Assembly (NCBI GenBank): GCA_964349945.1
Contig: CAYGIH010000001.1
Span: 105,306 to 169,305, forward strand
Direction: 5' to 3'
Length of the DNA: 64,000 nt
Origin: an uncultured Candidatus Saccharibacteria bacterium
GTDB lineage: Bacteria; Patescibacteriota; Minisyncoccia; Phycocordibacterales; Zambryskibacteraceae
Shown here one piece after another: positions 7,266 to 45,614 of the stretch (positions are counted from its first letter, which is position 1; each line of letters starts with the position of its first letter). The notes under the pieces are model-generated. The model worked only from the letters and a program-made list of their open reading frames with translations, did not search any database and had not been told where the DNA came from. Both the position numbers and the translations under genes were made by a program.

Positions 7266-9608
7266 GTGTATAATAAGGCAATGATTAAGGATTATGTACG
7301 GGCCGCCAATTATTTGAGCGCCATTCAGATTTATTTGTGGGACAATTTTTTATTAGAAAAACCTCTTAGTAGTGATGATATAAAGTCGAGGCTCCTGGGT
7401 CACTGGGGGACTTGTCCGGGGATTAACTTTGTTTATGCGCATTTGAATGACGTCATCATCAGGCACAAACAAGATATGATGTTTATATTGGGCCCAGGTC
7501 ACGGCTTCCCAGCACTTCAAGCCAATTTGTTTTTAGAAAAAACACTCGGGCAGTTTTATCCAGAAGCAACGCAAGATGAGAGTGGAATAAAATATTTGGC
7601 CAAAAATTTTAGCTGGCCGTACGGATTCCCAAGTCACTCAAATCCTGGTGCACCCGGAGTAATCCTTGAAGGTGGAGAACTTGGTTATTCGCTCTCTACT
7701 GCGTGGGGAACAGTTCTAGATAATCCTAAACTAATTACAGTTTGTCTTGTGGGTGATGGTGAAGCGGAGACAGGCGCACTCGCCACTTCGTGGCACCTTA
7801 GCAAATTTGTGGATCCAAAGACAAACGGAGCGGTTCTCCCAATTCTCCACTTGAATGGTTACAAGATCTCTGGACCAACAGTTTTTGGTCGAATGAATAA
7901 TGAAGAATTAAAGGAACTTTTCCATGGATACGGATACGAACCAATTATAGTCGATGGTGGAGATGATGAACTTTATGAAAGGATGCCTGTGGCACTTGAA
8001 ACTTGTTTAGAAAAAATAAAAAAACTTCAAACAGAAGGTAAGGCAGAAGAAGATTCTTATCCTAGGTTCCCTATGATTATTCTTCGAACCAAAAAAGGTT
8101 GGACAGGAGTGAAGGAATCCAGAGGCAGAAAGATTGAGGATAATGCCTTGGCCCATCAAGTGGTTTGTTCTCATGTGAAGAGTGACCCTGAAGAACTCAA
8201 ATCTGTTGAAGCTTGGCTTCGTTCATATAATTTCTCAGAATTGTTTGGTAAAGAAAATGGTTTTACTAAAAGCATCATAGATCTCATCCCACCACCGGAG
8301 CTTGCGATGGGGAACAACAAACACACTTTTGGTTTGAAATACACTGGTCAACCTCTCGACCTTCCAGATGCAGAAAGTTTAATGGAGGATGCGAGTGTCC
8401 CCGGGACTATGGGTTCAAGCAGTATGATCCGTATGTCTCTATATCTAAAGGAAGTTTTCAACAGAAACAAAGAGAGTAAAAATTTTCGCCTCATGTCTCC
8501 GGATGAAACTTATTCAAACAAACTCCAGGCGGTTTTCCCTGAGACCTCTCGAGCCTTTGCTGGACCGATAGAACCTTGGGACATCGACCTCTCACCAGAT
8601 GGACGAGTGATGGAAATGCTTTCTGAGCACTCGCTCCAAGGTTTAGCCCAAGGTTATATATTGACCGGACGACACGCAGTCTTCGCTTCTTATGAAGCCT
8701 TCGTCCAAGTGGTGTCTAGTATGGCAGATCAATATGCGAAGTTCCTCCACGTCGCCAGAGAGATACCTTGGAGAGGAGATATTCCTTCCCTCAATTATAT
8801 TTTGACCTCTAGTGGTTGGAGACAAGAGCACAATGGTTTCTCTCACCAGAATCCAGGCTTCATTGATGCAATGCTCCAAAAGCAAGGATGTTTTGTGAAG
8901 GTTTTCTTCCCACCAGACGGAAACACCGCACTTGCAGTACTTGAACAATGTCTAAAGTCTAAAAATGAAATCAACTTAATTGTGGCTGGTAAGACTGTTG
9001 AACCAAGGTGGCTCGATGAGAAGTTAGTGAAGCAGGAACTCCAGTCGGGGTTAATGACTTGGGACTTCGCCAGTGATGAAAATCCTGATTTGATTTTCTC
9101 TGCTGCTGGAGAGTATCTGACCAAAGAAGCTCTCGCTGCCATGATGATAATTCGAGAGAAATTACCCGAAGTTAAACTACGCTATGTGAACATTTTGGAG
9201 ATCTCAGCTATAGGTATAGGCAACTCAATGTGTAAGGTGCCCATGCAGTCATTCAATGATTATTATATGGAGGACAAGCCTGTTATCTTTAATTTCCACG
9301 GTTATCCAGAGACACTCAAGCAGGTTTTGTTTGATCACCAAGATGGTAAGAACAGATTTTATGTTCATGGTTATACAGAAAATGGTTCGACCACCACACC
9401 ATTTGATCTTCACCTTAGGAATAAAACCAGTCGCTATGATTTGGCCATTGAAGCCTTTAGAATCTTGGCCGAAAGGAATCTTATCTCTACTGCAGAAGCA
9501 GAACAGTTGATCGAAGAATTCACTCGCAAGATATCTGCTCATCATGAATATATTGTGAAGAATGGAGTGGACCCAGAAGAAATTAATAATTGGAAGTGGC
9601 AAAGATAA
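7266..9608 (+). CDS. xfp: xylulose-5-phosphate/fructose-6-phosphate phosphoketolase
   Basis: 780 aa. Signature motifs GHWGTCPG…GPGHG…EGGELGYSLS, with a TPP-binding fold. Confidence 0.85.
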   Translation: MYNKAMIKDYVRAANYLSAIQIYLWDNFLLEKPLSSDDIKSRLLGHWGTCPGINFVYAHLNDVIIRHKQDMMFILGPGHGFPALQANLFLEKTLGQFYPEATQDESGIKYLAKNFSWPYGFPSHSNPGAPGVILEGGELGYSLSTAWGTVLDNPKLITVCLVGDGEAETGALATSWHLSKFVDPKTNGAVLPILHLNGYKISGPTVFGRMNNEELKELFHGYGYEPIIVDGGDDELYERMPVALETCLEKIKKLQTEGKAEEDSYPRFPMIILRTKKGWTGVKESRGRKIEDNALAHQVVCSHVKSDPEELKSVEAWLRSYNFSELFGKENGFTKSIIDLIPPPELAMGNNKHTFGLKYTGQPLDLPDAESLMEDASVPGTMGSSSMIRMSLYLKEVFNRNKESKNFRLMSPDETYSNKLQAVFPETSRAFAGPIEPWDIDLSPDGRVMEMLSEHSLQGLAQGYILTGRHAVFASYEAFVQVVSSMADQYAKFLHVAREIPWRGDIPSLNYILTSSGWRQEHNGFSHQNPGFIDAMLQKQGCFVKVFFPPDGNTALAVLEQCLKSKNEINLIVAGKTVEPRWLDEKLVKQELQSGLMTWDFASDENPDLIFSAAGEYLTKEALAAMMIIREKLPEVKLRYVNILEISAIGIGNSMCKVPMQSFNDYYMEDKPVIFNFHGYPETLKQVLFDHQDGKNRFYVHGYTENGSTTTPFDLHLRNKTSRYDLAIEAFRILAERNLISTAEAEQLIEEFTRKISAHHEYIVKNGVDPEEINNWKWQR

Positions 9609-9612
9609 ATCT

Positions 9613-10596
9613 ATGAAAATTTTAACTGTCAATGTAGGAAGTGAATCAAAGAAGTACACATTGTTTGTAGATGACAAAGAGATTTGGAATGTTCACATAG
9701 AGGAGCGTGATGGACAAATCGGAGAGGATAAATTAAATGAACAGTTTGATTGTATTGCCTTTCGAGTAGTGGCTCCGGGGACATATTTTAGGGAACACAG
9801 ACTAATAGGTGAGGAATTCTTTAGACAACTTACGGTGGCCAGGGAAAAGGCCCCCCTCCACATAGACAGAACTTTTATTGAGATACAGTTTTTCAAGAGT
9901 CGATTCCCTAATACTAAGATGGTGGCTATTTCTGATTCAGCCTTTCACTCGACCCTTCCTGACTATGCACGACTTTATGCCTTACCACTCGATGATGCTA
10001 AGAAGTTTGATATAGAACATTTTGGATACCACGGCATCTCACTCTCATCTATTGTTGAAAAATTGAAAGCAGAAAATAATTTGAAGGACAGAATTATTGT
10101 TTGTCACCTCGGCGGAGGTTCAAGCATTACAGCGATAAAGGAAGGTAAAAGTATTGATACCTCTATGGGCTTCACTCCACTTTCTGGTTTAACTATGGCG
10201 ACGAGGGTAGGGGAAATTGATGCTGGGGCACTTGTTTATCTCTCGGAAGTGAAAAATCTACACGGAGAAAGATTTGAAGAATATCTTGGTAATCAATGTG
10301 GCTTCCTAGGCTTCGCTGGGACTCCAAGTATGAAGCAACTACTTGATGAAGAAAAGACAAATGAAAGGGCAGAGCAAGTTATAAGGATGTTTGTCTATCA
10401 AGTGCAGAAATATATTGGGGCTTATGCTGTGGCACTTGGTGGTTTGGATTTATTGGTTTTCTCCGGAGGCATCGGTGAACCATCTGAGCCTATCCGCTCA
10501 AAAATTCTTGCTGGTATTGGTGCTCTAAAGGAAAATGTTTTAGTTGTGCCTACGGACGAAGCAGGGGAGATGAATAGAATTGCAAAGGGGATATAA
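9613..10596 (+). CDS. ackA: acetate kinase (short form)
   Basis: MKILTVNVGSESKKY… resembles the ILVLNCGSSS N-terminus. HLGGGSSITAIKEGKSIDTSMGFTPLSGLTMATRVGEIDAG is the acetate/propionate kinase signature. Immediately downstream of xfp. Confidence 0.8.
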   Translation: MKILTVNVGSESKKYTLFVDDKEIWNVHIEERDGQIGEDKLNEQFDCIAFRVVAPGTYFREHRLIGEEFFRQLTVAREKAPLHIDRTFIEIQFFKSRFPNTKMVAISDSAFHSTLPDYARLYALPLDDAKKFDIEHFGYHGISLSSIVEKLKAENNLKDRIIVCHLGGGSSITAIKEGKSIDTSMGFTPLSGLTMATRVGEIDAGALVYLSEVKNLHGERFEEYLGNQCGFLGFAGTPSMKQLLDEEKTNERAEQVIRMFVYQVQKYIGAYAVALGGLDLLVFSGGIGEPSEPIRSKILAGIGALKENVLVVPTDEAGEMNRIAKGI

Positions 10597-11424: not shown

Positions 11425-11688
11425 ATGATAGACCCAACCAAACTAGACTTGAATCAATTACCAAAGAAATTCTGCGATGGAGCCATTGGGGCGTATGGGA
11501 AGGACCTTTTCTCTTTCGTCCTCACTTCTGGGAACAACCTCGACTCCTTCGCCACCACTCCGCAAGTGATGAAAAGCATAGCCGTTTGGATGAATGGCCA
11601 AATCCAAGATTATGAAAAGAAATTTGGAGTCATAGACATGACCCCTCCTTCAATCCAAAGCCCGATTCAAATTGCGGATTTGAAATAA
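11425..11688 (+). CDS. DUF3467-like small protein
   Basis: …PQVMKSIAVWMNGQIQDYEKKFGVI… resembles the conserved C-terminal block of DUF3467 proteins. Confidence 0.5.
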   Translation: MIDPTKLDLNQLPKKFCDGAIGAYGKDLFSFVLTSGNNLDSFATTPQVMKSIAVWMNGQIQDYEKKFGVIDMTPPSIQSPIQIADLK

Positions 11689-11726
11689 ACTGATGCAAGG
11701 ACAGTCCTTGCTTAATGTTCATGTTG

Positions 11727-11762
11727 ACAACATTGTTTTAAGTGCTACTATAAAAATGTGAA
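11727..11762 (+). promoter_or_regulatory. sigma70-like promoter (TTGACA … TATAAA)
   Basis: ttgaca-N17/19-(c)tataaa. Lies upstream of the leader ORF and the MFS gene. Confidence 0.4.
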
Positions 11763-11778
11763 AGCAATAATAAACATT

Positions 11779-11889
11779 ATGAATAAGCGTCTTATGAACC
11801 TAGAAGCCTTCTGGGGTTATAAGCCTGTATCTGTCACTCATGACAATACACTTACGCTCAGTCGTGATGTTTCTCATTTGCAAAGTTAA
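11779..11889 (+). other. putative 36-codon leader peptide ORF (MNKRLMNLEAFWGYKPVSVTHDNTLTLSRDVSHLQS)
   Basis: ATG…TAA ORF between the promoter and the attenuator hairpins. Not in the ORF track because it is under 60 aa. Confidence 0.35.
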
Positions 11890-11918
11890 AATCTCCTATT
11901 AATTAGCACCTAGAAATC

Positions 11919-11963
11919 TCCCGACTGGACGAAAGTCGGGATTTTTCGTCCCAATTTGTCCAG
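11919..11963 (+). promoter_or_regulatory. attenuator-like alternative hairpins (terminator/antiterminator) in the 5' leader of the MFS transporter gene
   Basis: cccgac…gtcggg followed by aTTTTTcg. Overlapping alternative pairings ggacgaaa/tttcgtcc and ctggac/gtccag. RBS aggag lies just upstream of the ATG at 12005. Confidence 0.45.
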
Positions 11964-12004
11964 TAATTGTTCTTTTACTAGCTAACCACACACAGGAGCG
12001 AACA

Positions 12005-13195
12005 ATGTTAAAGAAATTGATTCGGCAGTACTATCTCTTGTCGTTCCTGTTCTCAGCAGGCGGCATGGCGATCATCAGTGCGACGTACGTCACTTTCCTC
12101 ATTCACAACGGTTTGAATTTGTTCGAAGTGAATTTGGTCAATGCGATTTTCTTTTTCACCCTCTTTATCTGCGAGATTCCAACCGGAGCCTTCGCAGATA
12201 TTTTCGGGAGGAAGCAATCGTTCGTGATGGCTTGTGCCATCACATCTCTCTCGATGTTTGTGTACGGTTTGTCCCATACATTTTGGGGCTTTGCTCTTGC
12301 AGAAAGTTTGGCCGCAGTTGGCAACACTTTCAGGAGCGGTGCCTTTCAAGCATGGTTCGTGGACAGCCTGAAGCATCATGGTTATGAAGGTTCTTATACC
12401 AAGCTTTTTGGGAGGGAGAGTCTTTATAATCGAGTCGGTGGCGGTCTCGGTTCTATCACTGGAGCTTATATCGCCGTTGTGAATCCCGCGTATCCATGGT
12501 TTTTGGGCGGGAGCATTATGTTCGTGATGACACTCATTGCCCTCAAGGTGATGAAGGAAGAATATTTTGTCCGACAGAGTTTCTCTTGGAAGAATGGTTT
12601 GAACAAGATGCTCGAGGTGGCGAAGACCAGTGTTCACTATGGAGCCACCCACAAGCCAGTGAGGTTTATCCTCATCGTCACCTTCATCGAGATCTATGCT
12701 GTGCAGGCCATCAACATGTACTGGCAACCGTTCTTTAGGCAGAGTGGAGTGAATGAACAACATCTTGGATTTCTTTTCTCTGGGATGATGCTCATGGTTG
12801 CACTCGGTGCCTACCTCGTCTCTCGGATGAACACAGAGGGCAAGGAACGAGTGATGATACTCTGGTCCATGATGTTCGTCGGGGTGATGATTTGGATAGC
12901 TTCTTTGTCACCTTGGCTCTCTGGAGCTATCCTTGCTTTCCTTCTCCACGAAGGAGGTAGGGGATTTTGGAATCCGATGAGCGACAGCTATCTCCAACAG
13001 AGGATTCCCTCCGAGGAGCGGGCAACCATCTCTTCATTCTGTTCGACGGCTCCGCACATCGGTGGGGCAGTCGGGCTCCTCGTGAGCGGTGGTATTGCCC
13101 AGATGTTTGGGATAACTGCTTCGTGGATGGTGGGTGGTGCGGTGCTCGTAGTCGGAGCATTTCTCGTTCGTAAAAACGGTTATGATTCGACCTAG
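12005..13195 (+). CDS. MFS transporter, drug:H+ antiporter-like (elevated-GC gene)
   Basis: 12-TM protein of 396 aa with MFS motif A (GAFADIFGRKQSF). GC about 50% against a background of about 35%. Confidence 0.75.
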   Translation: MLKKLIRQYYLLSFLFSAGGMAIISATYVTFLIHNGLNLFEVNLVNAIFFFTLFICEIPTGAFADIFGRKQSFVMACAITSLSMFVYGLSHTFWGFALAESLAAVGNTFRSGAFQAWFVDSLKHHGYEGSYTKLFGRESLYNRVGGGLGSITGAYIAVVNPAYPWFLGGSIMFVMTLIALKVMKEEYFVRQSFSWKNGLNKMLEVAKTSVHYGATHKPVRFILIVTFIEIYAVQAINMYWQPFFRQSGVNEQHLGFLFSGMMLMVALGAYLVSRMNTEGKERVMILWSMMFVGVMIWIASLSPWLSGAILAFLLHEGGRGFWNPMSDSYLQQRIPSEERATISSFCSTAPHIGGAVGLLVSGGIAQMFGITASWMVGGAVLVVGAFLVRKNGYDST

Positions 13196-13201
13196 AAACT
13201 C

Positions 13202-13233
13202 AAACGGTTTGTCCAACGACAAACCGTTTTTTA
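13202..13233 (+). terminator. rho-independent terminator
   Basis: aaacggtttgtc-caac-gacaaaccgttt followed by tttt. Confidence 0.7.
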
Positions 13234-13343
13234 TTACAATTTTATGGCTTAACAGAGGGATATTTATGCTTGACTTTTATAATTAAATATGTTTATATAC
13301 TCGTAGAGTAATTGCACGCCAACCACCATCAGAGGGCTCGAAA

Positions 13344-13634
13344 ATGGGAGAAAAGAAACGGCTACTGCTCCTCGTCGAAGAACTTCCTTCCCAGATGAGA
13401 TCGGTTATCAAGGCATTTCATCCGACCGCGGGAGGGTTCATCGTCGAGGAAGCCAGTTCCGAACATGATGTTGAACAGGTGGGTGGGCAAACCAAACAAG
13501 ACGGGATGCTCATCACTAGCTATCAGCAACGCAAGACTGGTGAACTGTTTTTCCGTGTTGTTGACACGCGGGATAACTGGAGCACCAAGTGGTACAGGGC
13601 GCTCGCCCTCACACAACAAACTCAAATCGCCTAG
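13344..13634 (+). CDS. hypothetical protein (elevated-GC gene)
   Basis: 96-aa ORF followed directly by a terminator. The overlapping antisense ORF 13362-13625 is considered spurious. Confidence 0.4.
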   Translation: MGEKKRLLLLVEELPSQMRSVIKAFHPTAGGFIVEEASSEHDVEQVGGQTKQDGMLITSYQQRKTGELFFRVVDTRDNWSTKWYRALALTQQTQIA

Positions 13635-13654
13635 ATAATTAGGCGATTTTTTTT
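13627..13654. terminator. bidirectional terminator
   Basis: tcgcct-agataatt-aggcga followed by T8. Confidence 0.6.
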
Positions 13655-14711
13655 ATGCAGTTTTGGGGATAGGGAATTCTTGGGTTTCTTGTGTAGGAGC
13701 GATTTTTTGAAATTCTTTTATCATATCTATTTTGCTCAAATAATTTCTGTATACATCCACATAATTTCCATTTTGTATTTCATAGCTAGCATAATTTCTA
13801 GATTGCTTACCTTTGTATTCATATGCAGGTGTAGTGAGACTGTGTGATTTGAAATAAGAATCATGAATACCCAAAGAGTTTCCAGCATCTATTGGTTCAA
13901 CACATGCTACCCAGCTTCTTCCCATCATGTCTGTTCCAAAGGTATATAAAACTGTTTTATCATTTGAATAAAAACTTGAAAGTATTATGTTTCCATATAA
14001 AAAGTTTTCTTGAGTCCAAGTATCAAAAGGATGTTCAAAATCTGGTGCGTGGCTATCTGAAACCTTGACATCTTCTGGTGCCAATCTGGGTTCAGTTTCT
14101 TTTGTTTCGTTAATTACTAGTTCTATTGGTTTACTTGGAATTCTTCTTCTGTAAGTTGTGTTTTCTAATCTTTCTTCGACTAAATTTTTTGATGTTGAAT
14201 AAAATATTTTCATAGAGTCTTCTTGGGTTTCAACAGGGTCAGTATTTTGAGCAAGATAAGATAAAACTCTTTGGATTGAATGTGTGACAGAGACATTTTG
14301 TTCATCATGTCCCTTATCAAATAATTGCAATGCGGGTATGTTTATATAACTGGGCAAGTATTTAAAAACTCCATGAGAATTACTCAAATAATAACTACGA
14401 GCAGTGTAAGTATTGTTTCCTTCTTTTGTATAACCTATAAATGCAATCCTGTTGTCATCAATAATAAATGGACGAGAAAAAGCGAAAATCCTCTCATAAC
14501 CTTCAAACATTATCGCATAAGGCTCCACCCCATTTCTTTTATACATTTCTGGATCTTTAGGATCTTTTTCTCCGGCATGAATTTGGGTTTTGGACAAAAT
14601 CATTTCAGCCATTTCATCTGAAAGAAGCTCAAGCTTTACTTTGGTGCCGGTAGTGCTCTCAAATCTTAAATCTGTTTTTGAACCTTCGTTATTTTCTGGA
14701 AGTTTCTCCAT
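13653..14711 (-). CDS. hypothetical protein (352 aa, soluble, no recognisable motifs)
   Basis: Long ORF with AT-rich codon usage, no transmembrane segment or signal peptide. Adjacent to a tRNA cluster. Confidence 0.55.
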   Translation of the reverse strand: MEKLPENNEGSKTDLRFESTTGTKVKLELLSDEMAEMILSKTQIHAGEKDPKDPEMYKRNGVEPYAIMFEGYERIFAFSRPFIIDDNRIAFIGYTKEGNNTYTARSYYLSNSHGVFKYLPSYINIPALQLFDKGHDEQNVSVTHSIQRVLSYLAQNTDPVETQEDSMKIFYSTSKNLVEERLENTTYRRRIPSKPIELVINETKETEPRLAPEDVKVSDSHAPDFEHPFDTWTQENFLYGNIILSSFYSNDKTVLYTFGTDMMGRSWVACVEPIDAGNSLGIHDSYFKSHSLTTPAYEYKGKQSRNYASYEIQNGNYVDVYRNYLSKIDMIKEFQKIAPTQETQEFPIPKTA

Positions 14712-14718
14712 AAATTTG

Positions 14719-14790
14719 TGACCCTACAGAGAGTCGAACTCTGCTTCCATCCTTGAAAAGGATGTGTCCTAACCGATAGACGATAGGGCC
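14719..14790 (-). tRNA. tRNA-Glu (anticodon TTC)
   Basis: The reverse complement folds as a cloverleaf. Anticodon loop TTTTCAA, T-loop GTTCGACTC. No CCA encoded. Confidence 0.8.
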
Positions 14791-14853
14791 TTAATAACCG
14801 AAATATAGTAACATTTTTGGTCAAAAAGGCAATAAATGCTAATGTAGGAGCAC

Positions 14854-14940
14854 GGAAGAGTGGCTGAGTGGTTGAAGGCACCGGTTTCGAAAACCGGCAT
14901 GGGGGAAACCCCATCGAGAGTTCAAATCTCTCCTCTTCCG
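14854..14940 (+). tRNA. tRNA-Ser (anticodon CGA)
   Basis: Acceptor GGAAGAG/CTCTTCC, anticodon arm CCGGT-TTCGAAA-ACCGG, long variable arm, T-loop TTCAAAT. Confidence 0.85.
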
Positions 14941-14973
14941 CAGATTTGGATTTTGGTATAGAGTAGCCATATT

Positions 14974-15046
14974 GCGCGGTTAGCTCAGTTGGTAGAGCGC
15001 GTCATTGACGTTGACGATGTCAGAGGTTCGAGTCCTCTACCGCGCA
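14974..15046 (+). tRNA. tRNA-Val (anticodon GAC)
   Basis: GCGCGGT…TAGCTCAGTTGGTAGAGC…CGTCA-TTGACGT-TGACG…GGTTCGAGTCC…ACCGCGC-A. Confidence 0.85.
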
Positions 15047-35849: not shown

Positions 35850-35933
35850 TGGTGCCGGGGAGAGGACTTGAACCTCCATGAGTTGCCTCGCTAGTTCCTA
35901 AAACTAGTGCGTCTACCATTTCGCCACCCCGGC
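35850..35933 (-). tRNA. tRNA-Leu (anticodon TAG), CCA encoded
   Basis: The reverse complement reads GCCGGGGTGGCGAAATGGTAGAC…CTAGT-TTTAGGA-ACTAG, a long variable arm, …GGTTCAAGTCC…CCCCGGCACCA. Confidence 0.8.
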
Positions 35934-35938
35934 AGTGA

Positions 35939-35990
35939 ACTTGTGCGCCCGAACTACGTCCTGGGCGACTTCGCTCGGAGATATCCAAAA
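35939..35990 (-). repeat. partial duplicate of the tRNA-Lys 3' end / tRNA-like fragment
   Basis: cttgtgcgccc at 35939-35949 repeats 36014-36024. The fragment gcgcccgaactacgtcctgggcga forms a T-arm-like hairpin. Confidence 0.4.
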
Positions 35991-36018
35991 GTAAACTTTT
36001 GTCTACCTCACTCGCTTG

Positions 36019-36091
36019 TGCGCCCAGTAGGAGTCGAACCTACGACCATCTCCTTAAGAGGGAGCTGCTCTACCAGCTGAGCTATGGGCGC
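36019..36091 (-). tRNA. tRNA-Lys (anticodon CTT)
   Basis: The reverse complement reads GCGCCCATAGCTCAGCTGGTAGAGC…CTCTTAA…GGTTCGACTCC…TGGGCGC-A. Confidence 0.65.
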
Positions 36092-36158
36092 TCGAATGTA
36101 GAGTATCGCAAATTTCTGACGATTTTTCAATCGTTTTATGATAATGTAGATTCTGTTC

Positions 36159-36229
36159 GGCCTAGTAGCCAAGTGGTAAGGCACGGCTCTGCAAAAGCTT
36201 CATCGGCGGTTCGATTCCGCCCTAGGCCT
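36159..36229 (+). tRNA. tRNA-Cys (anticodon GCA)
   Basis: GGCCTAG…GCCAAGTGGTAAGGC…CTGCAAA…GGCGG-TTCGATT-CCGCC-CTAGGCC-T. Confidence 0.7.
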
Positions 36230-36265
36230 CCCGAACAGTTTGTGTTTATAATAACTGTGAGGCAC

Positions 36266-36351
36266 GCCCAGGTGGTGGAATGGTATACACGGAGGACTTA
36301 AAATCCTCTGGTCGCAAGACCTTGTGGGTTCGAGTCCCACCCTGGGCACCA
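36266..36351 (+). tRNA. tRNA-Leu (anticodon TAA), CCA encoded
   Basis: GCCCAGG…GAGGA-CTTAAAA-TCCTC, long variable arm, GTGGGTTCGAGTCCCAC-CCTGGGC-ACCA. Confidence 0.85.
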
Positions 36352-36353
36352 GC

Positions 36354-36424
36354 GCGAGGTTAGTTTAGTGGTAGAACTGGTGCTTCCCAAGCATCGGGCG
36401 CGAGTTCGATTCTCGCACCTCGCA
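36354..36424 (+). tRNA. tRNA-Gly (anticodon CCC)
   Basis: GCGAGGT…GGTGC-TTCCCAA-GCATC…GCGAG-TTCGATT-CTCGC-ACCTCGC-A. Confidence 0.8.
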
Positions 36425-43658: not shown

Positions 43659-43744
43659 TGGTGCGCCGGGAAGGATTCGAACCTTCGAAGCCCGAAGGCG
43701 CCAGATTTACAGTCTAGTGCGATTGACCACTCCGCCACCGACGC
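43659..43744 (-). tRNA. tRNA-Tyr (anticodon GTA), CCA encoded
   Basis: The reverse complement reads GCGTCGGTGGCGGAGTGGTCAATCGCA-CTAGA-CTGTAAA-TCTGG, long variable arm, AGGTTCGAATCCT…CCGGCGC-ACCA. Confidence 0.8.
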
Positions 43745-43812
43745 ATACGGGCTATAATAAAGCATTTTCAAGGGACTTGCAAAATCTATAAAATCCGGTA
43801 ATCTATAACCCT

Positions 43813-43986
43813 ATGTCACAAGACCATCTAATAAAGCTCGTCTCTGTAGGAGATAAACAAGGAGTAGGTAAAGGCCATACTTATTATTCGACTAGAAACA
43901 GAAAGTCAGTTGAAAGAAAAATCGAAGTCAAGAAATATAATCCGATTGCCAAAAAGCACACAGTTTATAAAGAAAAGAAAGCCTAA
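43813..43986 (+). CDS. rpmG: 50S ribosomal protein L33 (Cys-less C- form)
   Basis: 57-aa ORF, not in the ORF track because it is under 60 aa. MSQDHLIKLVSVGDKQGVGKGHTYYSTRNRKSVERKIEVKKYNPIAKKHTVYKEKKA aligns with the L33 core (…YTTTKNKRNTPERLELKKYxPVxRKHTLHKE…). Confidence 0.65.
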   Translation: MSQDHLIKLVSVGDKQGVGKGHTYYSTRNRKSVERKIEVKKYNPIAKKHTVYKEKKA

Positions 43987-43989
43987 TAA

Positions 43990-44016
43990 AGATTCGCCGA
44001 GAGGCGGATTTTTTGT
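43990..44016 (+). terminator. rho-independent terminator after rpmG
   Basis: cgcc-gaga-ggcg followed by attttttg. Confidence 0.5.
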
Positions 44017-44022
44017 TAGGAT

Positions 44023-44092
44023 TGTTTATCTAGGGCGATTAGTTTAGTGGTAGAACAACGGTCTCCAAAACCGTTGGCGAGGGTTCGATTCC
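44023..44092 (+). tRNA. tRNA-Trp (anticodon CCA)
   Basis: GGGCGAT…ACGGT-CTCCAAA-ACCGT…GAGGG-TTCGATT-CCTTC-ATCGCCC-G. Confidence 0.75.
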
Positions 44093-44105
44093 TTCATCGC
44101 CCGCA

Positions 44106-44705
44106 ATGATAAACCCTTTTAATATTCCTGAAGTTTTAGCTCTGTACGGATACATAGGTGTGTTTGTGATTGTTTTTTTAGAATCAGGGATATTTTTCCC
44201 ACTACCTGGAGATAGTCTTCTCTTTACAGCAGGGATTTTGGCATCAGGGCTTGGTTTAAACATTGGGTTTCTAATACCTCTTATTTTTATAGCTACATTA
44301 TTAGGTGGTATCGCGGGATATTATTTGGGTACTCAAATTGAAAAATTACACAATTATTCTTTTTTTAGAAAAATTCTAAGCCAAGAGCATATAAATACAG
44401 CTCACAATTTCTTTGAGAAATATGGCAGATTTGCAGTAGTTTTTTCTCGCTTTGTACCATTGGTTAGAACATTTATTCCTATTGTGGCTGGAATCGCCCG
44501 CATGGATTACAAAAAGTTTTTGAAATACAGTCTTATTAGCTCATTGCTTTGGTCCACAACCATAACTTTGGCTGGCTTTTTCTTAGGACGTTCTTTCCCT
44601 TTGATAAAGGATTATCTTCACTATTTTATTTTTCTTATAATCCTCCTTTCAATCCTTCCAGGTATCTTTGAATGGATGCGAACTCGGCAGAAGAAAACCA
44701 CTTAA
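44106..44705 (+). CDS. DedA/SNARE-associated family membrane protein
   Basis: …FLESGIFFPLPGDSLLFTAG… DedA signature. 199 aa. Confidence 0.85.
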   Translation: MINPFNIPEVLALYGYIGVFVIVFLESGIFFPLPGDSLLFTAGILASGLGLNIGFLIPLIFIATLLGGIAGYYLGTQIEKLHNYSFFRKILSQEHINTAHNFFEKYGRFAVVFSRFVPLVRTFIPIVAGIARMDYKKFLKYSLISSLLWSTTITLAGFFLGRSFPLIKDYLHYFIFLIILLSILPGIFEWMRTRQKKTT

Positions 44706-45531
44706 TCTTTTTGTTCCTTCTGAACCAAGTCATCTGGCGTTTGGAATAGTGCTTAATTTCTTTATATAACTCTTCTAAAAATGCTTTTTTAGTAAGTTTG
44801 TTTTGAAGTAGGCGAGCGAGATATCTATATTCAAGCCCAAGTTCTTCCATGCGTCTATAAGACAGTTTATTAGCTTTTAGTCTTTTAGCTTCTCTTATCA
44901 TCCCCGGTATTCGAGCGAGCAGTCTTTTATAAATCAATTTTTCTAATATTTCTTTTTTTGGATTTACTCCTACATAAATATATTCATATATGTTAGACCC
45001 CCGGGGTTTAACATTTGGGACTTGGCCTAGAGATTCTATGATTTCTAAGGCACGGATAAGTCGTACTTTATTTTTTTTATCAATAGTTTTGGCTCTTTTA
45101 GAATCTTTCTTCTTTAGGAAATTAAAAAGCTCTTCGACAGTTTTACTCTCTAAATATTTTCGTAGTTTAGGATTAGGTGGCACTTCAGGTAAAACCATTT
45201 TGCCAGTTAGAGTATCAATATAAAATCCTGTGCCCCCAACAATAATTGGCAGTTTATTTTTCTTTATTATTTGTTGAATAGCTTTGTCTCCAAGTTTTTT
45301 ATAGTCTGATGCAGAGAATCTTTTTTTTGGATTAGCTACATCTAAGAGATGGTGGGTGATACCAGACATTTCTTTTTTGGTCACTTTACCTGAACCAACA
45401 TTTAGACCTTTATAAACCTGTCTTGAATCAGCAGAAATAATCTCCCCATTAAACTTCTTGGCGAGCCTTACCCCTAAACTGCTTTTACCTGAGGCTGTTG
45501 GTCCTACTATTATCAAAACCTTCTTTTTCAT
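44635..45531 (-). CDS. miaA: tRNA dimethylallyltransferase
   Basis: MKKKVLIIVGPTASGKSSL (P-loop) …DSRQVYKGLNVGSGK… The ORF-track N-terminal extension overlaps tRNA-Leu and was trimmed to MKKKV. Confidence 0.85.
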   Translation of the reverse strand: MKKKVLIIVGPTASGKSSLGVRLAKKFNGEIISADSRQVYKGLNVGSGKVTKKEMSGITHHLLDVANPKKRFSASDYKKLGDKAIQQIIKKNKLPIIVGGTGFYIDTLTGKMVLPEVPPNPKLRKYLESKTVEELFNFLKKKDSKRAKTIDKKNKVRLIRALEIIESLGQVPNVKPRGSNIYEYIYVGVNPKKEILEKLIYKRLLARIPGMIREAKRLKANKLSYRRMEELGLEYRYLARLLQNKLTKKAFLEELYKEIKHYSKRQMTWFRRNKKIKWFSSAEFASIQRYLEGLKGGL

Positions 45532-45533
45532 TG

Positions 45534-45614
45534 TGCCGGGAAGAGGACTCGAACCTCCACCCCTTGCGAGACACGATTTTGAGTCGTGCGCGTCTACCAT
45601 TCCGCCATCCCGGC
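45534..45614 (-). tRNA. tRNA-Leu (anticodon CAA)
   Basis: The reverse complement reads GCCGGGATGGCGGAATGGTAGAC…CACGA-CTCAAAA-TCGTG, long variable arm, GGAGGTTCGAGTCCTCT-TCCCGGC-A. Confidence 0.8.

Follow-up and report, generated by a model that had tools for sequence, protein, structure and literature searches.

A predicted leader-peptide transcription attenuator upstream of a major facilitator superfamily transporter gene in Patescibacteria

In the amino-acid leader attenuators of enterobacteria (trpL, hisL, pheL, leuL, thrL and ilvL), a short 5' open reading frame (ORF) precedes alternative 1:2, 2:3 and 3:4 helices that end in an intrinsic terminator. The ORF is rich in codons for a single amino acid at the place where a ribosome that stalls covers segment 1, and transcription terminates either without a ribosome or with a free-running one. 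In translation attenuation of the erm/cat type, a stalled leader ribosome unmasks a ribosome-binding site. Among transporter genes, the 53-codon bmrB leader of the Bacillus subtilis bmrCD multidrug ATP-binding cassette (ABC) transporter was shown experimentally to mediate induction by antibiotics (PMC4191407), and the mef(E)/mel macrolide efflux operon carries mef(E)L, an 8-codon arrest peptide (MTASMRLR) within a 327-nt leader on mobile elements (PMC4335068). In mycobacteria, leaderless polycysteine short ORFs are reported to act as amino-acid-responsive attenuators of downstream genes (10.1101/834739). Here we analyse a leader region directly upstream of a major facilitator superfamily (MFS) transporter gene, in a 64,000-nucleotide stretch of DNA (the window) from an uncultured Candidatus Saccharibacteria bacterium of the Patescibacteriota (contig CAYGIH010000001.1, positions 105,306 to 169,305).

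We conclude, with moderate confidence, that this region is a ribosome-dependent (leader-peptide) transcription attenuator controlling a monocistronic MFS gene, for which a shortage of charged asparagine tRNA (tRNA-Asn) would be the likeliest trigger; the attenuator core taken by itself we regard as very probable from the comparative evidence. An original prediction, made from the letters of the window, had described a leader-peptide attenuator of the translation type in front of a horizontally acquired drug-efflux gene. All the elements that it listed were located in the sequence, with slightly corrected coordinates (Table 1), and its layout of a leader ORF on which the position of the ribosome would choose between terminator and antiterminator is conserved and covaries, though as control of transcription and not as erm/cat-style control of translation.

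A leader ORF and four covarying helices

Relatives of the MFS protein were collected in a scan of one genome per species, which returned 312 relatives, and 80 of their loci were kept. A covariance model, R1, built from segment 2 through the a' motif (Table 1), matched exactly once per locus in 58 of the 80 homologous loci and in the window (11856-11990, 86.5 bits, E-value 1e-9). By blastn, identity in the hairpin region is 85-96% at loci where it is only 53-64% for the MFS protein, and identity above that of the neighbouring protein is, on these alignments, the signature of a functional non-coding element. The leader ORF, the terminator and the alternative helices are all kept across homologous loci, as the original prediction had required of them, and the helices covary. 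In the closest relative (L001), homology with the window runs from 11758 to 13235, beginning exactly at the leader start codon, and by these bounds the leader and MFS gene are predicted to form a self-contained module with its own promoter.

The promoter scan placed the leader promoter slightly away from its first description: TTGACA is present, at 11724 and not at 11727, and TACTAT makes a better -10 hexamer than the TATAAA originally named, which overlaps it. A sigma70-like promoter (at least 9 of 12 positions) occurs at the same place in 37 of 52 homologous loci, compared with 1.5% at random anchor positions, and usually shows a perfect TTGACA and a 17-nt spacer. Of the 37 promoter-matching loci, 36 have a gap of 6-9 nt from the -10 box to the leader start codon and the remaining one has 11 nt, and with so short and fixed a gap the ORF should begin at or next to the predicted transcription start; the leader transcript is thus predicted to be leaderless or nearly so, its 5' end lying at or beside the start codon.

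The start of the leader ORF was assigned by alignment. GTG 11758 stands in one column with the start codons of 23 close relatives (ATG in 19; GTG in the window, L001, L002 and L015), whereas ATG 11779, which had been taken as the start of a 36-codon ORF ending at TAA 11889, is ACG in L001. That shorter ORF exists, but the homologous and most likely start is GTG 11758, which gives 43 codons. In about 50 loci the frame can be read for 35-50 codons, whereas stops interrupt the other two (10-11% stop triplets), and every one of the 127 alignment gap runs inside the ORF is a multiple of three, compared with 73 of 156 downstream. Gene callers predict a homologous 43-aa ORF as well, under the NCBI name hypothetical protein, and we consider the leader ORF to be translated. 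The peptide itself appears barely conserved: column entropy is much the same at the three codon positions (1.06, 1.03 and 1.12), and so selection would scarcely act at the amino-acid level. No conserved arrest motif was found in the leader peptides of the homologous loci. The candidates for such an arrest peptide (NITN, GY, LxxSRDVS, LFSRDNF and LFNQGGF) fall on segment 1, P2 and segment 2, and their residues switch where the RNA covaries. In L039, L042, L052 and L056 the ORF crosses segment 2 in a different frame and stops earlier with the segment 2 nucleotides kept, and so the apparent C-terminal motif would reflect a constraint on RNA and not on the peptide.

Within this ORF and behind it lie the strands of the alternative helices. 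Segments 1 and 2 form P1, which closes a domain containing the hairpins P2 and P3, and segment 3 can pair either with segment 2, as antiterminator, or with segment 4 (AGUCGGGAUUUUUC), as terminator. The terminator-like GC stem and T run of the original prediction were recovered by the terminator scan, with arms TCCCGACT/AGTCGGGA at 11919-11941 followed by TTTTT. In every sequence family segment 2 resembles segment 4 (in other families, AACCAAGGCGAUUUU goes with CCGAGGCGUUUU and AGCCGAGAUAAUUUU with AGCCGGUUUUU), and being a near-copy it leaves segment 3 able to pair with either of them; in the window, 13 of the 15 positions of segment 2 can pair with segment 3.

Helices were defined by hand and their pairs counted; the MAFFT alignment put P2 and P3 out of register, and RNAalifold run on it for the 23 close relatives gave only the terminator and a small hairpin. 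No single register served the terminator, P1 and c:c' over all families, even after realignment with a covariance model (the GCCUCGG family stays 2-4 columns off), and so P1 was counted in the close group only. On alignment A4, 83.1% of the cells of the 2:3 antiterminator are paired, compared with 32-48% in slid controls, with compensatory changes at 10 of 15 pairs; for the 3:4 terminator the share, a lower bound, is 80.5% (slid controls 31-58%), with compensatory changes at 7 of 13 pairs. On alignment A2, helix 1:2 (P1) together with P2 reaches 84.4% (slid controls 31-50%; 5 of 17 pairs compensatory), and for none of the three did any of 500 shuffles reach the score. P1 alone is 90.9% paired on A2, with compensatory changes, and P2 shows them at 3 of 6 pairs; the differences in P2 between the window and L001 (CACAG/CUGUG) are compensatory too. 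The fourth helix, c:c', joins the top and loop of the terminator to a segment directly 3' of the U tract, and on A4 it is at least 85.8% paired, with at least 6 of 7 pairs compensatory, its controls and shuffles having been counted jointly with a:a'.

Across families the variants of P1 are plainly compensatory by their sequence (AUCACGA/UCGUGAU, AUAUCGCGA/UCGCGAUAU, AAUCGCC/GGCGAUU, AAUUAUC/GAUAAUU, UUGUC/GACAA and AUGCC/GGCAU), and P1 closes the minimum free energy (MFE) fold in nearly every locus. Cognate duplexes are stronger than cross-family duplexes for all four helices (P1, -12.4 versus -8.5 kcal/mol; c:c', -9.9 versus -5.3 kcal/mol), and in the window the helix energies are -16.2 (2:3), -18.7 (3:4) and -10.9 (1:2) kcal/mol.

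On this comparative evidence, which is that of sequence, the ORF, the four helices and their mutual exclusivity are established features of the predicted leader. Mutually exclusive structures had been part of the original prediction and are found here, since segment 3 is common to terminator and antiterminator and both helices covary; the decisive antiterminator, however, is 2:3, which that prediction overlooked. The pairs that it proposed instead, ggacgaaa/tttcgtcc (11927-34/11944-51) and ctggac/gtccag (11925-30/11958-63), are exact complements, and the second of them is a real helix, coinciding with the covarying c:c'. Both nonetheless have their 3' strands beyond the U tract, and so they cannot prevent termination at that site.

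Two other explanations meet their evidence at this point. In nearly all loci two hairpins are enclosed by a closing helix, the 256-nt leader folds with a z-score of -4.7, and P1 and P2 covary, all of which would favour a metabolite-binding riboswitch in which P1, P2 and P3 make up the aptamer, the 3' strand of P1 controls the terminator and the ORF is incidental. We find this very improbable: Rfam gives it no match even at E-values up to 10, the junction and loop nucleotides vary between sequence families, and a non-coding aptamer would be expected to show neither the strict reading frame, nor the fixed distance of start codon to -10 box, nor Asn codons enriched only in frame (see below). At gathering score, the cis-regulatory families of Rfam 15, riboswitches and T-boxes included, gave nothing over the whole window, where only tRNAs matched, and 11600-12100 gave chance-level matches at E-values up to 10 (PsrR1, 28.3 bits for a gathering score of 42; S4 leader, 15 for 37.5). 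The match to PsrR1, a cyanobacterial small RNA (sRNA), lies at 11847-11946, owes its score to the terminator hairpin with its U run, and was judged to be chance. We found no description of this leader element in Rfam 15 or in the searchable literature.

The leader also has a promoter and a terminator of its own, and its ORF is annotated by gene callers, as would suit an independent gene for a small protein or sRNA with no regulatory link to the MFS gene, or a short transcript acting in trans through its terminator loop on c', for which the complementarity of c and c' would serve equally well. This too is most unlikely, in view of the lack of amino-acid-level selection on the peptide, of the position of the element, which always directly precedes a gene of the one MFS family despite flanking genes that vary from genus to genus, and of the mimicry of segment 4 by segment 2 in every family, which makes sense only for a switch.

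Table 1. Features of the leader and MFS gene in the window (all on the + strand; positions are those of the window)
Feature	Position	Strand	Details and basis
-35 hexamer of leader promoter	11724-11729	+	TTGACA; promoter scan
-10 hexamer of leader promoter	11746-11751	+	TACTAT, TG-extended; 16-nt spacer; ends 6 nt 5' of the leader start codon
Leader ORF	11758-11889	+	43 codons (GTG...TAA), MKAIINIMNKRLMNLEAFWGYKPVSVTHDNTLTLSRDVSHLQS; ORF list; stop TAA 11887-11889
Asn-rich part of leader	11761-11799	+	Codons 2-14, Asn at codons 6, 9 and 14 here; an A-site stall would put the ribosome footprint over segment 1
Segment 1	11772-11782	+	AAACAUUAUGA; 5' strand of closing helix P1 (anti-antiterminator); MFE fold; leader codons 5-9
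P2 hairpin in ORF	11791-11823	+	CUUAUGA-CCUAGAA/UUCUGGG-UUAUAAG; MFE folds; compensatory changes
P3 hairpin in ORF	11827-11849	+	GUAU.UGUCA/UGACA.AUAC; MFE folds of the window and most loci
Segment 2	11860-11874	+	AGUCGUGAUGUUUCU; 3' strand of P1 and 5' strand of antiterminator; leader codons 35-39; near-copy of the terminator 3' arm
Segment 3	11912-11926	+	AGAAAUCUCCCGACU; common partner of segment 2 (antiterminator) and segment 4 (terminator); covariation
Intrinsic terminator	11919-11946	+	Stem 11919-11926/11934-11941, loop GGACGAA, U tract 11942-11946; scan
c	11925-11931	+	CUGGACG; top of terminator stem and loop, complementary to c'; covariation
c'	11957-11963	+	UGUCCAG; directly 3' of the U tract; would pair with c only in read-through RNA, or in trans
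a' motif	11969-11978	+	GUUCUUUUAC; consensus GUUCUUUrAmAA; conserved in alignments A2, A3 and A4
Shine-Dalgarno sequence of MFS gene	11995-11999	+	AGGAG; read from the sequence
MFS transporter gene	12005-13195	+	396 aa; PF07690, 87.1 bits (gathering score 33.4)
Terminator of MFS gene	13202-13229	+	End of the conserved module; terminator scan

A predicted switch set by the position of the ribosome

Intrinsic terminators are used in this genome, in which the scan found 12 of them with 2.8 expected, and we infer that the one in the leader is coupled to translation of the ORF. A strong promoter would give a transcript whose 5' end is at or near the start codon. Without a ribosome, 1:2 and 3:4 would form and transcription would stop at 11942-11950. 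A free-running ribosome would be on segment 2, or between segments 2 and 3 at the stop codon (whose conserved place in the loci is 18-39 nt after the start of segment 2 and mostly 18-36 nt before segment 3), while segments 3 and 4 are being made, and the terminator would form again. A ribosome delayed within the first ~30 codons, and especially within the first ~14, where it would cover segment 1, would leave segment 2 free to pair with segment 3 before segment 4 exists, and the polymerase would read into the MFS gene. For read-through, translation would have to begin and then be held up near the start of the ORF, and the switch would respond alike to whatever slows early elongation.

We modelled this by folding the transcript of the window up to the U tract, at equilibrium only, with the ribosome footprint masked and no pairing allowed across it. 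The probability of the terminator was about 1.0 without a ribosome, with the P site at codons 1-3, and with the P site from codon 30 through the stop codon, and it fell to 0.1-0.5, with the antiterminator favoured, for P sites at codons 4-9, 15-21 and 24-29. Averaged over 39 loci, the same probability was 0.89 without a ribosome, 0.57 with one in the early to middle part of the ORF, and 0.96 with one from segment 2 to the stop codon.

Two conserved elements lie beyond the terminator. Helix c:c' would form in cis only after read-through; it abuts the 2:3 helix without a gap and would contribute about -10 kcal/mol to the read-through fold, a gain that hints at a lock on that state, and c' could equally be the target in trans of the short attenuated RNA. 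The a' motif is conserved in nearly all of the 58 loci (A4 columns 189-199) and in all sequence families, including L077, whose MFS protein is 32% identical. Three roles considered for a' were rejected: its pairing with the 5' flank of segment 3 is good in the GCCUCGG family and only 53% paired overall, a -35 box would leave no room for a -10 box ahead of the MFS start, and the U tract of a second terminator would be separated by a spacer of 5-10 nt in the close group.

Control could in principle also be exerted at the ribosome-binding site, and the original prediction did name translation attenuation, whereby a long hairpin containing c:c' would mask the site of the MFS gene until the leader ribosome opens it. 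The AGGAG it identified is present ahead of the MFS gene, the free full-length fold of the window pairs CUCCU (11893-97) with this AGGAG around c:c', the Shine-Dalgarno (SD) sequence of the window has an unpaired probability of 0.07 there as against 0.43 with 2:3 enforced, and several loci have a CUCC-like motif behind the leader stop codon. Over 37 loci, however, the SD region is no more paired than its control (0.55 native, 0.56 with shuffled upstream sequence), a clear SD is missing in many homologous loci, and the conserved U tract and covarying 2:3 and 3:4 helices point to termination. The masking predicted in the window is therefore not conserved across loci, and we rejected it as a conserved second layer of control and hold it to be very improbable as the primary one. 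A direct repeat of AAAUCUCC occurs at 11889-11897 and 11914-11921, and its first copy, right behind the leader stop codon, includes the CUCCU that pairs with the MFS SD in the MFE fold of the window.

The 5' ORF and the alternative helices of the enterobacterial leaders described above recur in this attenuator, as does, in the folding models, termination without a ribosome or with a free-running one; the Asn codons, enriched where a stalled ribosome would mask segment 1, are a putative counterpart of their regulatory codons. It differs from them in that a transporter gene stands in the place of a biosynthetic operon, the transcript is predicted to be leaderless, the ORF is long (about 43 codons), with two hairpins inside it, and extends across segment 2 to a stop about 25 nt before segment 3, the Asn codons are scattered (about 3 in 13) and not in a run, and a further covarying helix, c:c', follows the U tract. 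With erm/cat it would share the remodelling of downstream RNA by a ribosome stalled on the leader ORF, but here masking of the SD is not conserved and the conserved output element is a terminator.

The bmrB leader resembles it in its long ORF (53 codons there, 43 here), in the set of terminator, antiterminator and anti-antiterminator, in its transporter target and, by prediction here, in the need for the leader to be translated at a rate that sets read-through; it differs in that its terminator lies inside the coding region, it has a 5' untranslated region and it serves an ABC transporter, whereas here the terminator follows the stop codon and the transcript appears leaderless (PMC4191407). 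Like mef(E)L, the leader precedes an MFS gene, ends in a Rho-independent terminator and would act by leader-peptide-dependent transcription attenuation, but no constraint on its peptide sequence is seen, and the module is chromosomal and phylum-wide (PMC4335068). The mycobacterial ORFs are reported to be alike in being short, leaderless and enriched in the codons of one amino acid, and differ in their Cys runs and their phylum (10.1101/834739). The 1:2, 2:3 and 3:4 logic of the switch is a known one; the leader differs from these systems in joining a predicted leaderless start to a long ORF spanning a folded domain and segment 2, in the placing of its terminator after the stop codon, in its Asn enrichment and in c:c'.

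Asparagine codons, the transporter and the likely trigger

Codons for Asn are enriched at the start of the leader ORF. AAY triplets make up 25.4% of leader codons 2-13 in frame, compared with 1.9% and 3.6% in the other two frames, 5.6% in frame from codon 14 to the stop and 2.8% in the MFS genes, and so the enrichment is 7- to 13-fold and specific to the frame. At least two Asn codons fall within codons 2-14 in 41 of 48 leaders, and the three main sequence families average 2.5-3.2 of them. No comparable frame bias is seen for His, Tyr, Asp and Lys codons; a queuosine-tRNA explanation, which would involve NAY codons in general, was set aside since only Asn is enriched and His, Tyr and Asp are not. 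On the strength of this frame-specific signal, we tentatively regard limitation of charged tRNA-Asn as the likeliest physiological trigger, in which case the MFS protein would be an Asn-related importer. No report of Asn specificity in leader-peptide attenuation was found in the searchable literature.

Several observations weigh against this reading. Asn6 and Asn9 lie in or next to segment 1, and in many loci UAUUY is the pairing partner of the GAAUA around codon 9, and so the Asn signal is in part a constraint on RNA; codons 2-5 and 10-13 alone, which leave out the constrained region around codons 6 and 9, contain 20.7% Asn. Seven of the 48 leaders have none or one Asn within codons 2-14, and the codons do not form a run such as that of hisL or pheL. 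Among named proteins, those nearest to the MFS protein (Tet(40), TetA(P), DHA3 and EntS), all far under cutoff, are exporters, and we know of no MFS importer of Asn. Against the attenuator as such, about half of the 39 modelled loci retain the terminator at equilibrium even with segment 2 free, and so the switch would have to be kinetic, resting on the order of synthesis, in which 2:3 can form before segment 4 is made. Finally, the attenuator model leaves the role of c:c' and of the conserved a' motif unexplained.

The same attenuator could instead respond to ribosome-targeting antibiotics, with the MFS protein as a drug exporter, as the original prediction had it. In favour of this are the best, though weak, NCBIfam matches of the protein, which are to tetracycline and DHA3-type efflux pumps, and the unconserved leader peptide, which would fit a generic sensor of translation speed. 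It has parallels in bmrB-bmrCD, whose 53-codon leader with three alternative stem-loops is induced by many translation inhibitors (PMC4191407), and in mef(E), an MFS pump under a leader-peptide transcription attenuator (PMC4335068). All of these NCBIfam matches are far below cutoff, however (Tet(40), 67.9 bits for a cutoff of 800; TetA(P), 56.8 for 750; TIGR00900, 52.5 for 319.6), the leader is without a conserved arrest motif, the MFS family is spread phylum-wide rather than on mobile elements, and an Asn enrichment limited to the first 14 codons is left unexplained, being unexpected of an antibiotic sensor. We therefore hold an antibiotic-induced exporter to be possible but rather unlikely, and place antibiotics or general translation stress next after tRNA-Asn among the triggers, with less confidence.

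The MFS gene itself stands as originally described, with its motif A (GAFADIFGRKQSF), which in this superfamily lies between TM2 and TM3, present in the translation and G61, D65, G68, R69 and K70 invariant in 24 homologs. Among the 378 homologs of the protein, those with names belong to Patescibacteria (Minisyncoccia, Paceibacterota and others), with identities of 50-86%, and no solved structure matched it at an E-value below 1e-3. The G+C content, which the original prediction had called elevated, is indeed raised: it is 47.8% in 12001-13000, whereas the window as a whole has about 40%. Other 1-kb bins, several in number, reach 48-52%, however, and the excess is both modest and unremarkable. 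The leader-MFS module occurs throughout Paceibacteria-type genomes, at 50-86% protein identity, and L001 has the same gene upstream; horizontal acquisition is not supported. On the NCBIfam scores given above, a role in drug resistance is not supported either.

An extended version of the Asn reading would make the module a two-checkpoint, Asn-specific attenuator unique to Patescibacteria, in which a leaderless leader senses charged tRNA-Asn, the MFS protein imports asparagine or a precursor, and c:c' and a' together form a second decision point that times the ribosome stall. Three forms are conceivable for this second decision point: it might lock the read-through fold, act as another weak terminator, or offer the short attenuated RNA a site for action in trans. 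We consider this version improbable as a whole.

The neighbourhood of the module and its significance

An ORF of 87 aa (11425-11688, with weak similarity to DUF3467) lies upstream of the leader in both the window and L001, at 70 nt from it in the window (11688-11758) and about 700 nt in L001 (2052-2750). In the window it is followed directly by a hairpin, GCAAGGACAGTCCTTGC, at 11695-11711, 13 nt before the leader -35 box, which probably marks the end of the upstream transcription unit. Further upstream, the region 7266-10596 contains two genes with a 47-nt overlap, one for a phosphoketolase (780 aa, with XFP domains) and one for acetate kinase. Downstream of the module, the ORFs 13344-13634 (+) and 13653-14711 (-) converge on a symmetric hairpin at 13624-13649 (AAATCGCCTAGATAATTAGGCGATTT), which has T runs on both strands and the look of a bidirectional terminator. 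The window contains eleven tRNA genes in three clusters, at 14719-15046, 35853-36424 and 43662-45614 (Rfam tRNA, 54-71 bits). Gene neighbourhood was dropped as a clue to function, for the flanking genes vary between genera.

Beyond the named Patescibacteria, a hairpin and T run also lie upstream of distant MFS homologs (32-35% identity) in L077, from a bin labelled Gammaproteobacteria, and L078, from a metagenome-assembled genome of the Bacillota, and L077 retains the complementarity of the loop to the downstream segment together with the a' motif. This could mean that the module is more ancient or more widespread than Patescibacteria; mis-binning of the two contigs would be another explanation.

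Cis-regulatory RNA in Patescibacteria, the candidate phyla radiation, is almost unexplored, and the element appears to be undescribed. Conservation of an attenuator whose four helices covary and whose leaderless ORF keeps its frame would imply that coupling of translation to transcription is used for regulation in bacteria with tiny genomes, and it offers a handle on an MFS family that recurs in Paceibacteria-type genomes and is without a solved relative by sequence. Should antibiotics prove to be the trigger, this would be a case of inducible efflux in episymbionts. Patescibacteria are thought to be auxotrophic episymbionts that depend on their hosts for amino acids, and if Asn is indeed what the leader senses, an amino-acid specificity for which we found no precedent in leader-peptide attenuation would control an importer in these presumably host-dependent organisms.

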